Origin: a virus
Taxonomy: Duplodnaviria; Heunggongvirae; Uroviricota; Caudoviricetes
Length of the DNA stretch: 35,090 nucleotides
Reading direction: 5' to 3' (one strand)
IMG/VR virus record: IMGVR_UViG_2671180963_000003
The notes beneath the pieces are model-generated. The model was not told the DNA's origin. It saw only the letters and a list, made by a program, of their open reading frames with translations, and did not search any database. A program made the translations under genes and the position numbers. Positions 2,636 to 6,555 of this stretch are shown piece by piece. Every line of letters begins with the position of its first letter. Within the stretch, counting starts at the first letter, position 1.

Positions 2636-2664
2636 AGTATAAAATAATCCTTGACAGTTGTCAA
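2636..2664 (-). promoter_or_regulatory. sigma70-like leftward promoter (TTGACA-17-TATACT)
   Basis: On the minus strand, TTGACA (2664..2659), a 17 nt spacer, TATACT (2641..2636); the -35 is one half of the palindrome TTGACAgtTGTCAA (2651..2664). Confidence 0.5.
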
Positions 2665-2859
2665 TACACTTGACCCAAGCGAGAAATGACTATCAAAATT
2701 TTTGTTTGAAAATGGTAGATCAGGATTATCAACCTTTATAACCTATTATAGCACGGAGACCTTTTGACAATTCTTTTTAAATCATTAACTTACGCCACTT
2801 TTTGGTGATTTTTTGATTAAATAATATACAAGAATTTTCTATCAAAATATTTGATGGGA

Positions 2860-3056
2860 ATTGCCCCTGAAATTCTGAATTTTTGCCCCCGAATAAAATC
2901 CCCAAGATTCTACTATCCCATTTTTGCCCCTGAAACCTACTATTTTTGCCCCTGAAATTCTGGGAAACAGTGATTTTGCCCCTCATTTTTGCCCCTGAAA
3001 TGCCAATAATTGCCCCTGAAAATCTAATTTTTGCCCCTGAAATTTGCCCCCGAAAA
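2860..3056 (+). repeat. array of about 9 direct repeats of TTGCCCCTGAAA (variants TTGCCCCCGAA) plus one inverted copy near 3100
   Basis: Copies start near 2860, 2883, 2924, 2946, 2977 (truncated), 2988, 3010, 3031 and 3045; GGGGCAAAA in inverted orientation at about 3100; an AT-rich segment precedes the array at 2800-2858. Confidence 0.8.
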
Positions 3057-3459
3057 GGATTGGTGAGAAAAACTCTTTATAAAACATTAAATTAGTGAGG
3101 GGCAAAAGCGGGTGATGCGGCGTACATAGATATTATATAACACATTCGCTACGCTCATGTGTAAAACTAAAAACAACAAATAACCAGAAAGATATTAGGA
3201 GGGCTTTAGCCCGACTGCGCGAAGCGCCAACCAATTGCTTCTAGTAACAACTAATTTAAACTAGATGATACTAGATGGTCTTAGAAGGAATTAACTAGTT
3301 TGCTCGCTCGCTTCGCTCACTCTCAAACGTCTGCGACGCCACTGCGTGGCATCGAGAATCACTTCTGAAAGGATTTTCTCGAAAGGGATTTTAAACTAGT
3401 TACTAACTGATTCTAGAAAGATAGTAATAATCACTTTAATGATCATGAAAGGTATTGGT

Positions 3460-3488
3460 ATCCCTTCGGGATTGCAACCTTCGGTTGC
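3460..3488 (+). other. two tandem short hairpins with CTTCG loops (possible RNA structure or weak terminators)
   Basis: ATCCcttcgGGAT and GCAACcttcgGTTGC in tandem, followed by a T-rich tract. Confidence 0.3.
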
Positions 3489-3686
3489 TAAATTGCTTCC
3501 TGATTATTATTTCTCCAAAAGAAAGATTCTTATATTCTAAAGATACTTCTTCGTTTTGACGATGATTTAATCAAAAATCATGAAGGAGGCGAAGCCGACT
3601 GAATCCAATCACCTTTCATAATAACAAGAATTTTCTCTTTATAAATAATATTAGATTGATTCACTTTCTTTTTAGAGGATACCACT

Positions 3687-4127
3687 ATGATCAATACTAA
3701 AACTCCTTTCGTACTTCTGGGTCTGGACTCTGAAAACTACGGCAACTTCCATATGCTAGAAGTTTTCGCTAATCGTGGTTATAACATCATTCGTCATTCC
3801 GAAGACTCCAACTACTCAACTGCTTTCTACGCTTTAAAACGAAATGGTCGTCCTACTGTGATCATCGACTGTCTTACTGATGAAGGTCGTCTTCAATACA
3901 ACGATATTCCAGCAATTATTGTTCGTGATGACCTGCCGTTTGATGTTCGTGAATACGACGTTGATTTAGGCTCTTACTATGGGATCGCCGATCTTGACCA
4001 GATTATGGCTGATTACGGTAAAGAAACCGCTCAGGAAGCCCCGGAAGATGACGAAGACTACGCTCCAATCTGTTTCTCTTCTCAGAATGGCTTCTACGGT
4101 TACGATGAAGGCTTAGATATGCTGTAA
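3687..4127 (+). CDS. strongly acidic early protein, function unknown (possible DNA-mimic/anti-restriction candidate)
   Basis: 146 aa ORF, AGAGGA Shine-Dalgarno; about 27 Asp/Glu versus about 10 Lys/Arg; first rightward gene after the large control region. Confidence 0.55.
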   Translation: MINTKTPFVLLGLDSENYGNFHMLEVFANRGYNIIRHSEDSNYSTAFYALKRNGRPTVIIDCLTDEGRLQYNDIPAIIVRDDLPFDVREYDVDLGSYYGIADLDQIMADYGKETAQEAPEDDEDYAPICFSSQNGFYGYDEGLDML

Positions 4128-4149
4128 GTTAGGTCAACCCTTTGGCATC

Positions 4150-4169
4150 TTGTCAAGGGGTATTGACAA
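4150..4169. promoter_or_regulatory. palindromic operator-like site TTGTCAA-N6-TTGACAA overlapping a promoter -35
   Basis: Perfect 7 bp inverted repeat with a 6 bp spacer; its right half-site is the -35 of the promoter at 4163-4191. Confidence 0.4.
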
Positions 4170-4191
4170 AATTTTATGACTTTTTTATGAT
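4163..4191 (+). promoter_or_regulatory. sigma70-like rightward promoter (TTGACA-17-TATGAT)
   Basis: TTGACA at 4163-4168, 17 nt spacer, TATGAT at 4186-4191; further TTGACA/TTGACC motifs at 4200 and 4217 suggest tandem promoters. Confidence 0.5.
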
Positions 4192-4247
4192 TATCGCACT
4201 TGACAACTTTGAACCTATTTGACCTAGATTTGTAAAGAGAATGTAAC

Positions 4248-4397
4248 ATGAAAGAATTTACCATCACTAAATCCCTGTATGACTGGACTGTTAAAATCTC
4301 CGGCAAAACCGTTTCTGTAACCCCTAGCCATGTAGAAAATGATTGGGTGTATCCCGTGAAACTATCTCCCGTAGTATGCATGTTCCGTTTGATCTGA
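4248..4397 (+). CDS. small ORF (49 aa), hypothetical
   Basis: ATG at 4248 downstream of the promoter; weak Shine-Dalgarno; absent from the ORF track because of its size; overlaps the next ORF by 22 nt in another frame. Confidence 0.25.
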   Translation: MKEFTITKSLYDWTVKISGKTVSVTPSHVENDWVYPVKLSPVVCMFRLI

Positions 4398-4579
4398 TGT
4401 CCTTAACTGGTATTCATGCAATGCTGGAAGTTCGCGAGCAATTCGAAGCTGGTAATCACAATGCAACTCCAGTTAGCAATCACCTTCTTACTAATGAAGA
4501 ACGTGAAATCATCGAAAACTGGCGTTATGAATATGCGATTCCTTATTATGAAGAAGACCAAGTAGAAATCGATTGGTAA
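4376..4579 (+). CDS. small acidic protein, hypothetical
   Basis: ATG at 4376 in the frame of the 4343..4579 track ORF (which starts at a TTG); no clear Shine-Dalgarno, so it may be translationally coupled or frameshifted to the preceding small ORF. Confidence 0.35.
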   Translation: MHVPFDLMSLTGIHAMLEVREQFEAGNHNATPVSNHLLTNEEREIIENWRYEYAIPYYEEDQVEIDW

Positions 4580-5496: not shown

Positions 5497-5504
5497 TAAT
5501 TTTT

Positions 5505-5529
5505 GCCCCTGAATTTCAGGGGCTTTTTT
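5505..5529 (+). terminator. rho-independent terminator built from the repeat motif
   Basis: GCCCCTG-aattt-CAGGGGC followed by TTTTTT immediately after the Rha-like gene; the stem contains the same GCCCCTGAA motif as the repeat array. Confidence 0.7.
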
Positions 5530-5689
5530 GTATCTGTAGATGCGCTGAACTTTAAGCGCATCCCTCCAGATTTGGATGCATCTATAGATCAGTCCAGATT
5601 TGGACTCAACTTAGAGATGAGCGCAGTTTTGCGCCGATTGTTTTACATACAAAAAAGCCACTCCGAAGAGTGGCAAAGAGAATCAAAAC

Positions 5690-5917
5690 TCAAAAACCTG
5701 TTGCTTCTACGATCTGACCATCACCGATCTGAACATAGAATTTAATGTCTAACTTCTTCATATTCTTATAGAATTGGGCGATTGAGATCCCATGTTCACT
5801 AAGAATCTGTTCTTTCGCTTCCTTACCACGATCCGCTGTATAATAAGCGTAGGCAATATCAGCCATTTGTTCAGCGTTAAAACGGGCAGGGCGACCGCGA
5901 GTAGCTTTAGTAGTCAT
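5690..5917 (-). CDS. small HTH DNA-binding protein (paralog of 2115..2294)
   Basis: Likely start ATG at 5917 (GGAG 9 nt upstream) rather than the track's GTG at 5950; ends with a Hin/resolvase-like HTH, GISIAQFYKNMKKL. Confidence 0.5.
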   Translation of the reverse strand: MTTKATRGRPARFNAEQMADIAYAYYTADRGKEAKEQILSEHGISIAQFYKNMKKLDIKFYVQIGDGQIVEATGF

Positions 5918-5952
5918 AGTCATTTTCTCCAAATTAAAGTGAATGTTCACCT

Positions 5953-6555
5953 TTATTTAGAGGACTTACATTTTATCGGAAAAAGTTCTCCATCGTCAAC
6001 CGACATAAAGAACTCTGCCTTAATCCCGTACTTCTTCAACCGTGAATAGTATGTACCCCGACTAATATCAACCTTGCGAAGCACTTCAAAGAACCCTTTA
6101 GGATCGTTGTAATAGTGGCTATAACGCACGTTAGCGAGTTCAACGAATAGTTCCCTTGTATCACCATAGCCTTTCTTGAAAGCCTCGTTACGATAGCGTG
6201 TAATTGCGTGATTCAATCTCTTCTGTTTCAACACTTCTCGGATCGGCTTCCACTGCAACCGATAGATAGGACCGTCATCAATGCGATAATAACGCTTGAT
6301 ATCAAAATCAAACCAATCTCGGACTCTCCGAAACTCTGTATGCGATGTTCTATGCTTCTTAAAGAAGTTGTGAACGTCTGTATAACCATTATCACGGTAA
6401 AATTCTATTAAAATCTCTTTCGCTTCCTCACGGCTAAAACCGGATGTTGTGTAATCAGTCTTTAAGTGCTTATGTTTTACTGGCAAACGATATTCATGAT
6501 CGGTACAAGACAAGGCTAATTCTAATTCATCTCTTTGTTGCTGATTAATTAGCAT
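5953..6555 (-). CDS. basic protein with HTH-like segments, function unknown
   Basis: 200 aa, AAGGGGG Shine-Dalgarno; C-terminal [16 protein letters not shown] resembles the HTH of the two small paralogs; antisense to the flanking Rha-like and terminase genes. Confidence 0.55.

Follow-up and report, generated by a model that had tools for sequence, protein, structure and literature searches.

Two predicted divergent promoters of a temperate prophage are accompanied by extra copies of their own -35 hexamer, and the non-promoter copies are kept in relatives while adjacent bases vary. The window, which is the whole stretch of 35,090 nucleotides that we analysed, is a temperate E. coli prophage of ~35 kb whose insertion site is ycdX. 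We propose that the region described here would be its early control region, from which two near-consensus sigma70 promoters, PL and PR, would fire outward, and that the extra TTGACA copies are putative half-sites of operators through which a single trans-acting regulator would control both arms, a proposal to which we give about an even chance. Protein binding at the half-sites, repression as its effect and the identity of the protein are all features that we infer from the sequence. PL would drive the left operon, including an iteron-specific initiator-like protein, and PR would drive a small protein and then a Rha/Ant-family protein. Operators overlapping early promoters are textbook phage biology, and these early promoters with their putative operators look like the ordinary phage-switch type; the phage family itself looks new and uncharacterised. 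Its regulators are not recognisable from sequence, and the promoters, the conserved non-promoter heptamers and a few conserved HTH proteins together offer a testable entry into its lysis-lysogeny control.

The prophage family was present in 58 of 5,426 complete E. coli genomes (about 1%), with relatives also in Shigella, Salmonella and metagenomic sequences. Searches of phage GenBank (megablast, blastn) returned no relative apart from a 75-nt stretch common to RB49-like phages, plasmids gave none either, and GTDB species representatives gave no match by protein or by pattern. A scan of IMG/VR for the nested architecture gave matches confined to this prophage family. Searching the literature for ycdX prophages, for the RefSeq accessions of the proteins and for Rha yielded nothing usable.

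Divergent promoters and the hexamers beside them

The promoters and the TTGACA elements around them are as follows.

2664..2636, minus strand: PL, leftward sigma70-type promoter (-35 TTGACA at 2664-2659, 17-nt spacer, -10 TATACT at 2641-2636; 11/12 in the promoter scan)
4163..4191, plus strand: PR, rightward sigma70-type promoter (-35 TTGACA at 4163-4168, 17-nt spacer, -10 TATGAT at 4186-4191; 11/12 in the promoter scan)
2651-2664: first palindrome, TTGACAgtTGTCAA, TTGACA-N2-TGTCAA, convergent arms with a 2-nt gap
2651..2657, plus strand: non-promoter heptamer (C)TTGACAG, the left arm of the first palindrome, inside the PL spacer
4150-4169: second palindrome, TTGTCAAggggtaTTGACAA, TTGTCAA-N6-TTGACAA, divergent arms with a 6-nt gap
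4200-4206, plus strand: TTGACAA at about +2 of PR
2764..2770, plus strand: TTGACAA copy, not conserved (TTGACC, TTGATG, TTGATA, TTGATT or TTGAAA in relatives)

Every string reported by the initial annotation lies where it had placed it (2651-2664, 4150-4169, and TTGACAA at 2764-2770 and 4200-4206). Its two divergent promoters, TTGACA-17-TATACT on the minus strand and TTGACA-17-TATGAT on the plus strand, each score 11/12 and are conserved in relatives, and its description of the palindromes as built from the -35 hexamer is accurate, each consisting of the -35 of one promoter plus an opposite copy that has no -10. Both promoters are intergenic and they lie 1.5 kb apart; PL aims at the left operon, whose first start codon (2309) is about 320 nt off, and PR is 50 nt upstream of an ORF at 4248. 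Across E. coli, Salmonella and metagenomic relatives, both keep their -35, their -10 and a spacing of 16-18 nt. For PL, the -35 is kept in 18 distinct relatives with only TATACT, TATAAT or TATGCT as the -10, and the Salmonella and metagenomic form is TTGAC[AG]-17/18-TATAAT/TATGAT. The PR hexamers are identical in all E. coli-type sequences inspected, with a spacer of 16-17 nt, and Salmonella PR reads TTGACA-18-(TGa)TAACAT.

We considered whether the non-promoter TTGACA copies are themselves promoters and rejected this, there being no -10 at 16-18 nt from them in E. coli or Salmonella; the heptamer at 2651..2657 is one such case. Both arms of the PL dyad are invariant in the 18 distinct sequences, and the centre (AGTT, AGAA, AGAT, ACAT or ACTT) and the next 5 nt vary. 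In every lineage that has the dyad it ends 9 nt from the -10, including those with unrelated Salmonella flanks, and its gap differs between lineages (N2 or N3-4). Promoters of the L066 type carry a second dyad of the same class across the start site, 31 bp away, and an alternative E. coli left module has no PL dyad. On the right, relatives have a palindrome gap of either 6 or 7 nt, the upstream TTGTCAA (4150-4156) persists in Salmonella as CTGTCAA, and TTGACAA follows the -10 by 8-9 nt in both E. coli and Salmonella. Between these two lineages the heptamer columns at PR are identical at 20/21 positions and other columns at 40-48% (Fisher p 1e-5 to 1e-6), a contrast that is inflated by the anchoring of the cross-genus alignment on the motifs. 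The PR of one relative, L072, is without the extra TTGACA copies.

The two further TTGACAA copies that had been pointed out behave differently: the one at 4200 is conserved, whereas the one at 2764 is present but not conserved and is probably incidental. The candidate -10 for the 2764 copy is not conserved among relatives either. As functional elements, this copy and a terminator-like hairpin at 2793-2807 were both rejected, since neither is conserved.

A bipartite unit on both arms

The palindromes had also been read as equivalent dyad operators, and this we do not uphold. They are not two copies of one dyad operator because their polarity and spacing differ, with convergent arms and N2 on the left, divergent arms and N6/7 on the right; what the arms share instead in the E. 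coli lineage is TTGACA-N13-TTGACC(TA), which occurs in three exact copies in the window, across both arms.

2651..2675, plus strand: left bipartite copy, exact match, covering the PL -35 and spacer (about -46..-22)
4132..4156, minus strand: upstream inverted bipartite copy, exact match, at about -66..-42 of PR, including TTGTCAA 4150-4156
4200..4224, plus strand: downstream bipartite copy at about +2..+26 of PR, including TTGACAA 4200-4206

The unit is a 25-bp direct repeat with half-sites 19 bp apart, overlapping core promoter elements, and for its 12 specified bases 0.2 copies are expected even with one mismatch allowed. The two inverted copies on the right bracket the PR core with mirror symmetry about position ~4178, in the PR spacer, and the upstream one was found in all 30 E. 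coli-type loci compared. Half-site columns are invariant in every E. coli-type locus examined; the intergenic region spans 120 nt, and its 45 variable columns fall in N13 spacers or between elements. The second half of the left copy decays to TTGATC, ATGACC or ATGATC in some relatives. TTGACC halves are confined to E. coli, and the flanks diverge in Salmonella and metagenomic relatives; three elements are retained there, namely the dyad at PL, the inverted copy on the upstream side of PR and TTGACAA at +2.

Genome-wide, TTGACA is not over-represented (19 copies versus ~22 expected), and 6 of the 19 fall in the two short promoter stretches. Three TTGACAA inside 60 bp were seen in none of 300 shuffles, and TTGACA pairs in inverted orientation, at most 10 nt apart, number 2 against a shuffle mean of 0.066 (P(>=2)=0.0005).

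That one regulator could serve both arms, as had been suggested, is plausible because a common motif stands at both; the part of that suggestion which finds no counterpart is the repressor, as no recognisable CI/Cro-like protein is encoded. In the mechanism that we propose, one regulator would read the extra (C)TTGACA(A/G) copies, which stand inverted in the PL spacer, inverted at a distance of 6-7 nt before the PR -35 and direct at about +2; in the E. coli lineage each of them is coupled with TTGACC(TA) at 19 bp, giving three 25-bp units. A regulator on PL would occlude the -35 and spacer, one on PR would flank the core promoter on both sides and cover the transcription start, and both arms would be shut (or switched) at once.

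Part of the right-hand inverted symmetry is also accounted for by a hairpin that follows ORF146.

3687..4127, plus strand: ORF146, a hypervariable acidic protein between PL and PR
4133..4167, plus strand: terminator-like RNA hairpin, directly 3' of the ORF146 stop codon, overlapping the PR -35

The hairpin is formed by GGUCA with the UGAC of the -35 and by ACCCUUUGGCA with UGUCAAGGGGU. Its predicted energy is -20.4 kcal/mol (z -3.5, 0/200 shuffles); most variants keep it at -16 to -20, three have a weaker hairpin of -8 to -12, and one compensatory change occurs, C:G to A:T (L005). Four A residues precede UUUU, and the terminator scan did not flag the hairpin. In Salmonella, the upstream GTCAA sits in the loop of a different hairpin, and RNA pairing is therefore no explanation for the conservation of GTCAA.

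This hairpin is part of an account with no dedicated trans-acting factor, which we consider unlikely. Here strong promoters arranged as inverted duplicates, an ORF146 terminator or insulator hairpin and shared ancestry would suffice, and the extra hexamers would be non-regulatory. The PL and PR cores are indeed 72% alike as an inverted repeat (GTATTGACAA...TTTTTAT), the hairpin is strong and mostly conserved, and the 2764 copy decays freely. Promoter matches of 11/12 are not rare per se (3 in the window versus 1.24 expected), and within-lineage sequences are so closely related that they represent few independent events, which makes invariance within a lineage weak evidence. Some half-site conservation could also mirror promoter function or RNA polymerase contacts, since the half-site is the -35 consensus. 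However, the left bipartite copy and the +2..+26 copy lie outside any hairpin, and three exact 12-base patterns with unrelated N13 spacers are improbable by chance. The heptamers also outlast the divergence of the E. coli and Salmonella lineages, through which the -10, spacer and hairpin architecture all change, and the heptamer inside the PL spacer is invariant although promoter-spacer sequence is normally unconstrained.

Candidate readers of the half-sites

No CI/Cro-like repressor was found with Pfam, PHROGs, NCBIfam or the PGAP annotation; the repressor search in Pfam, PHROGs, NCBIfam, PADLOC and PDB gave nothing but Rha, and PDB sequence searches with the 110-aa, Rha and 320-aa proteins gave no match. 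Three HTH-type paralogs were considered.

5690-5950, minus strand: gp75, HTH paralog of 75 aa (listed as an 86-aa ORF)
5953-6555, minus strand: gp200, HTH paralog of 200 aa
2115..2309, minus strand: gp64, first gene of the left operon, 59 aa in relatives (gp59), three-helix and HTH-like

For the proposed regulator of both arms, gp75 and gp200 are the best candidates as phage-encoded readers of the heptamers and would be favoured, with a host factor as the alternative. For both, identity across the E. coli and Salmonella lineages is 66-74%, and helix 3 does not vary. The third paralog, gp64, also has an HTH-like fold and was rejected as reader of the PL dyad: its sequence does not follow the dyad, with an identity of only 34-47% between lineages that have the dyad unchanged but 81% in cases of a degenerate dyad, which makes it a poor candidate.

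A host protein in place of a phage repressor is distinctly improbable in our estimation. The reader would be either sigma70 region 4 or the holoenzyme, with the hexamers as decoys or tethers modulating initiation or escape, or, at the PL dyad, a dimer of the CRP/FNR type. The motif is the -35 consensus itself, and it is identical in E. coli and Salmonella phages despite the divergence of gp59 (34-47% identity), Rha (49%) and ORF146 (38%). The CRP/FNR-type pattern TTGA-N6-TCAA fits the PL dyad. The FNR consensus is TTGAT-N4-ATCAA, and the PL dyad (TTGAC-N4-GTCAA) and the second dyad of L066 (TTGAA-N4-TTCAA) each agree with this consensus at 8/10 positions; however, the same position-5 mismatch recurs in both half-sites, and the PR layout, with divergent arms, a 6-7 nt gap and a direct copy at +2, is unlike any FNR or CRP site. 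Isolated -35 hexamers are poor binding sites for holoenzyme, a host reader would leave the E. coli-specific TTGACC(TA) halves unexplained, and gp75 and gp200 are conserved enough to be phage-encoded readers.

Direct SOS input to this phage is suggested by a cluster of LexA-box-like sequences in the PL leader.

2394-2413: LexA-box-like sequence
2479-2498: LexA-box-like sequence
2497-2516: LexA-box-like sequence

A LexA box is a CTGT-N8-ACAG palindrome around an AT-rich core; all three sequences have the form CTGTAT...CAG with one mismatch each. They are the top scores in the entire window by a heuristic PWM assembled from SOS boxes, by which the best reaches 20.7 bits, about the median of known boxes. 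Salmonella relatives have perfect or near-perfect boxes close to PL, and L066 and L076 carry perfect ones; no box occurs in L072 or in one of the E. coli module types. Where boxes occur they are in the leader, in some modules upstream, off the TTGACA elements and with none near PR. Hairpins in the PL leader were dropped as terminators, the LexA-like palindromes fitting them better. We rate as highly improbable a further reading with no dedicated CI-type repressor, in which the hexamers would be read by sigma70 region 4/RNA polymerase or by small sigma-competing phage HTH proteins as decoys or brakes on PL and PR, with host LexA at the PL leader as the inducible switch.

Least probable of all is a role at the RNA level, in which pairing of the ORF146 terminator with the 5' UUGACAA of the PR RNA and with the inverted copies would give alternative hairpins and so affect read-through, mRNA stability or translation rather than initiation: besides the strong hairpin over the PR -35, TAGGTCAA (4130-4137) is perfectly complementary to TTGACCTA (4219-4226) over 8 nt, TTGTCAA (4150) is a perfect complement of TTGACAA (4200) too, and a read-through RNA could therefore refold, but the short palindromes folded alone do no better than shuffles (z -1.2 and -0.7), the arms are invariant and hence offer no covariation for the long-range pairs, the left copy is upstream of or within PL under no known transcript, and the outer complements are absent in Salmonella. 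Rfam gave no match to the window at the gathering threshold or at E<5.

Known switches and the DNA between the promoters

The layout recalls several characterised systems. As at OL/PL and OR/PR of lambdoid phages (CI, Cro), divergent early promoters are overlapped by repeats of one short motif in a layout that could allow one regulator for both arms, and the PL operon runs toward the att/int end. Unlike in those phages, no recognisable protein of the CI/Cro/S24 type is encoded, the sites do not form tandem 17-bp dyads, and an origin-like iteron block and a gene, rather than a repressor gene, lie between the promoters. PR is invariant across the prophage family and is therefore not an immunity-specificity determinant, in contrast to the lambdoid case.

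Operators of P2-type repressor C are direct repeats about two helical turns apart at an early promoter. The bipartite unit likewise has two half-sites in direct orientation, here 19 bp apart, and overlaps the core promoter, but its half-sites differ from each other (TTGACA and TTGACCTA), a mirrored pair of units surrounds PR, the promoter has no C-like gene beside it and the second halves are absent in Salmonella relatives. At P22 immI, the Pant promoter with Arc and Mnt operators controls the antirepressor; PR similarly leads to a small protein and then a Rha/Ant-family protein, and candidate operators lie by the -35 and over the start site. In this prophage, however, no Arc/Mnt ribbon-helix-helix proteins were found and the motifs are unrelated. 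An antirepressor role for Rha is putative. LexA-dependent prophage control is known from coliphage 186 tum, the Gifsy antirepressors and GIL01 LexA/gp7. LexA-box-like sequences cluster by PL here too, also in Salmonella relatives, but in the leader, apart from the TTGACA elements and away from PR.

Between the promoters, an AT-rich stretch leads into a block of iterons.

2750..3107, plus strand: AT-rich stretch, then 8 direct iterons (TTGCCCCTGAAA, 2861-3055) plus a single inverted iteron (3096-3107)

The iterons are spaced by about 21, 22 or 42 nt and have DNA of 26-27% GC on their flanks, and DnaA boxes showed no enrichment. A change of iteron type goes with a change in the neighbouring ~320-aa protein, both within E. 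coli and across genera. We regard 2750..3107 as a probable iteron-type replication origin and the ~320-aa protein as its putative initiator. The control region additionally offers an iteron origin with a co-changing initiator-like protein, plus a probable direct SOS input. ORF146, on the PR side of the iterons, was rejected as a repressor on account of its predicted fold, which is kinase-like alpha/beta without a Walker A motif and is not a DNA-binding fold; it has its own conserved TATAAATA element at 3640-3647.

Palindromes and bipartite units at the divergent promoters

The initial annotation described palindromic TTGACA elements overlapping the −35 boxes of two divergent early promoters, and we found all four strings where it had placed them, at 2651-2664, 4150-4169, 2764 and 4200. 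A promoter scan recovered both claimed promoters, TTGACA-17-TATACT on the minus strand at 2664..2636 (PL) and TTGACA-17-TATGAT on the plus strand at 4163..4191 (PR), each matching at 11 of 12 positions. Promoter-like matches of this quality are not special by themselves (3 observed, 1.24 expected), and TTGACA is not enriched across the window (19 copies vs about 22 expected). Two short control stretches hold 6 of these 19 copies and 5 of the 9 TTGACAA copies. Three TTGACAA within 60 bp were reached in none of 300 dinucleotide shuffles, the same clustering of TTGACA in 7, and five TTGAC within 100 bp in 2; inverted TTGACA pairs separated by ≤10 nt occur twice where 0.066 are expected (P = 0.0005). 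Because this clustering exceeds that of the shuffles, the observation is real and non-random.

The interpretation stood only in part. Just two of the six TTGACA copies, those of the promoters themselves, have a −10 element at 16–18 nt. The copies at 2651 (+), 4156 (−) and 4200 (+) lack one, and TTGACC follows each of them after exactly 13 nt. TTGACA-N13-TTGACC occurs in three mismatch-free copies, with 0.2 expected even at a tolerance of one mismatch. The non-promoter copies are thus first halves of bipartite units, and each palindrome is a true −35 adjoining, or lying inside, an oppositely oriented unit.

Bipartite units (TTGACA-N13-TTGACC) relative to the promoters
PL, about −46 to −22: the PL −35 falls within the N13 of the unit
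PR upstream, about −66 to −42: just upstream of the promoter
PR downstream, about +2 to +26: mirrored copy

The two PR units are symmetrical about ~4178, within the promoter spacer. The flanks also distinguish the two kinds of copy, both true −35 boxes reading GTA-TTGACAA and the non-promoter copies C-TTGACA(A/G). That the palindromes are equivalent operators did not hold: the left one has convergent arms and a 2-nt gap, the right one divergent arms and a 6-nt gap. Salmonella and several E. coli relatives have a 7-nt gap in the right palindrome, while the distance from −35 to −10 stays at 16–18 nt.

Conservation within E. coli and across genera

In essence, the window corresponds to one complete prophage of ~35.3 kb, integrated into E. 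coli ycdX. Relatives are present in 58 of 5,426 complete genomes, chromosomal in every case, and no close cultured relative was found. For comparison we gathered 27 IMG/VR loci, 3 exact-protein contigs, 32 pattern hits and E. coli RefSeq loci, together with more divergent Salmonella and metagenomic relatives.

Among E. coli relatives, the 120 nt at 4128-4247 average 96% conservation vs 85% in the adjacent gene. All 24 half-site columns of the PR intergenic region are invariant, and its 45 variable columns are limited to the N13 spacers, the promoter spacer and the stretches separating the elements. Only some relatives carry the left control block (~2365-2875), which is a mosaic cassette. In the 18 distinct sequences carrying it, both arms of the inverted pair at PL (the dyad) are invariant; variation is seen in the dyad centre, in the 5 nt that follow, in the TTGACC half and in the 2764 copy, and changes in the −10 are confined to tolerated positions. 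An alternative E. coli left cassette has neither dyad nor bipartite unit; it has a different consensus promoter adjoining the iterons, and about 21 nt upstream of that promoter's −35 lies one additional direct CTTGACA.

Between E. coli and Salmonella, the −10, spacer and flanks of PR have diverged, and the TTGACC halves are absent from the Salmonella lineage. Three heptamers keep their positions: CTGTCAA 7 nt upstream of the −35, the −35 itself, and TTGACAA 8–9 nt after the −10. In an alignment anchored on these motifs, 20 of their 21 columns are identical vs 40–48% elsewhere (p 1e-5 to 1e-6). The PL core, TTGACA-AC-TGTCAAG-N8-TATAAT, is found again in Salmonella amid unrelated flanks. Promoters of the L066 type carry another dyad of this class, TTGAACTTTTTCAA, which covers the start site and whose centre is 31 bp from that of the first, and those of the L067 type an additional TTGACA at about +2. 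In the metagenomic L072 type the inverted GTCAA is retained and ends 9 nt from the −10, though farther from the −35, and the left promoter has TTGACA at about +12; its PR is without extra copies and is not followed by a Rha gene. One dyad arm is degenerate in L069.

Candidate readers of the sites

We give an even chance to a model in which the extra heptamers are putative operator half-sites through which one regulator controls both arms. Bound to the PL unit, it would occlude the −35 and spacer; on the PR units it would bracket the promoter and cover the start. The putative control element is of an ordinary phage kind, in an uncharacterised prophage family and with an unusual site architecture.

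Duplicated promoters plus a hairpin, with no trans-acting factor, make an unlikely alternative. RNA folding of 4125-4195 gave a strong hairpin directly 3′ of the stop codon of ORF146 (3687..4127, plus strand; ΔG −20.4 kcal/mol, z −3.5) that contains GGTCAA, TTGTCAA and part of the PR −35. It is retained in most E. coli variants, with one compensatory change, and is weaker in three. Its likely role is to terminate transcription of ORF146 or to insulate it, and part of the right-hand symmetry is due to this hairpin. It is not the whole explanation, since neither the downstream PR unit nor the left unit lies within any hairpin, the Salmonella GTCAA sits in the loop of a different GC hairpin, and the short palindromes alone fold no better than shuffles.

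Apart from a large serine recombinase, a lambda-GpA-type terminase and a Rha/Ant-family protein, no regulator or replication protein was recognised by Pfam, PHROGs, NCBIfam, PADLOC or PDB sequence searches or in the PGAP annotation. ORF146 occupies the “immunity” position between the promoters. Its model is a P-loop-kinase-like alpha/beta domain with a disordered acidic tail, and its sequence has no Walker A motif; as this is not a repressor fold, we rejected it as the repressor. The family is hypervariable (49–92% identity within E. coli and Shigella, 38% to Salmonella). A regulatory role for ORF146 is unlikely; the gene may be a “moron”, with an accessory or anti-defence function. It has a conserved upstream element of its own.

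Three small minus-strand genes encode paralogs, gp64, gp75 (listed as an 86-aa ORF) and gp200. The gp64 model is a three-helix bundle whose best matches, though weak (Z about 4), are homeodomain-like HTH DNA-binding domains. Identity of gp64 (59 aa in relatives) is 34–47% between lineages with an identical PL dyad and 81% where the dyad is degenerate, which argues against it as the reader. Between lineages, gp75 is 66–72% identical with an invariant helix 3, gp200 74% and Rha 49%. Judged from sequence, the degree of conservation of gp75 and gp200 matches that of the sites, and candidate readers for the one-regulator model are gp75, gp200 or a host factor. That a host component reads the sites, either sigma region 4 of RNA polymerase or a dimer of the FNR type bound to the PL dyad, seems doubtful, and a role at the RNA level is very improbable.

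The first gene 3′ of PR (4248-4579) is a single 110-aa ORF in relatives such as L028, with an HTH-like WGVSRETISRSM stretch; in the window it is frameshifted into 49-aa and 78-aa ORFs. Other relatives have a small arginine-rich protein (…VDFHERQRRIQEEIDR…) in its place.

Other elements in and around the inter-promoter region

The 1.5 kb separating the two promoters is more than an empty control region.

Elements in and near the inter-promoter region
2750-3107: origin-like block, an AT-rich stretch (26–27% GC) then eight direct TTGCCCCTGAAA iterons
2394-2413, 2479-2498, 2497-2516: three LexA-box-like palindromes clustered in the PL leader
3562..3534, minus: promoter-like TCGTCA-17-TAGAAT within a stretch shared with RB49-like phages
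3488-3460, minus: two hairpins with C-GAA-G triloops (GNA-triloop), downstream of that promoter-like sequence
8, 2001, 2358 (−), 2558 (−), 3640, 4591, 34141 (−): copies of TATAAATA

The eight iterons are phased (2861-3055; spacing about 21, 22 or 42 nt). Among E. coli relatives, as well as in the comparison of E. coli with Salmonella, a change of iteron type is accompanied by a swap of the N-terminal two-thirds of the neighbouring ~320-aa protein (1038-2000, minus), which suggests that this protein could be an iteron-specific initiator of a novel family. The LexA-like boxes were scored with a heuristic PWM made from SOS boxes. Perfect TACTGTAT-N4-ATACAGTA boxes lie near PL in Salmonella relatives (L066, 9143-9162; L076, 9185-9204). 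These predicted boxes suggest direct SOS input in a phage without a CI-type repressor.

The seven copies of TATAAATA (2.4 expected in the window) match the T4 late-promoter consensus, and the motif is poor as a sigma70 −10. Six lie 30–80 nt upstream of early or accessory genes and point toward them, and the copy preceding ORF146 does not vary among E. coli, Salmonella and metagenomic relatives. At 3460-3575, RB49-like T-even coliphages share a stretch of 75 nt with ~80% identity, which in their genomes falls in an unannotated intergenic region; RB49 too has hairpins there, one with compensatory changes (ATCCC/GGGAT vs ACTCC/GGAGT).

The gap between the converging genes for Rha and gp75 contains two further hairpins, at 5498-5530 (GCCCCTGAA/TTCAGGGGC, the left arm identical to the iteron sequence) and 5650-5675. 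Immediately before the first gene in the left operon, at 2310-2350, there is a terminator-like hairpin, GAGCG-NNNN-CGCTC with a run of T in the transcribed strand, a hint that the operon may be controlled by attenuation or antitermination; such a hairpin stands at the equivalent position in all relatives, whatever their module type.
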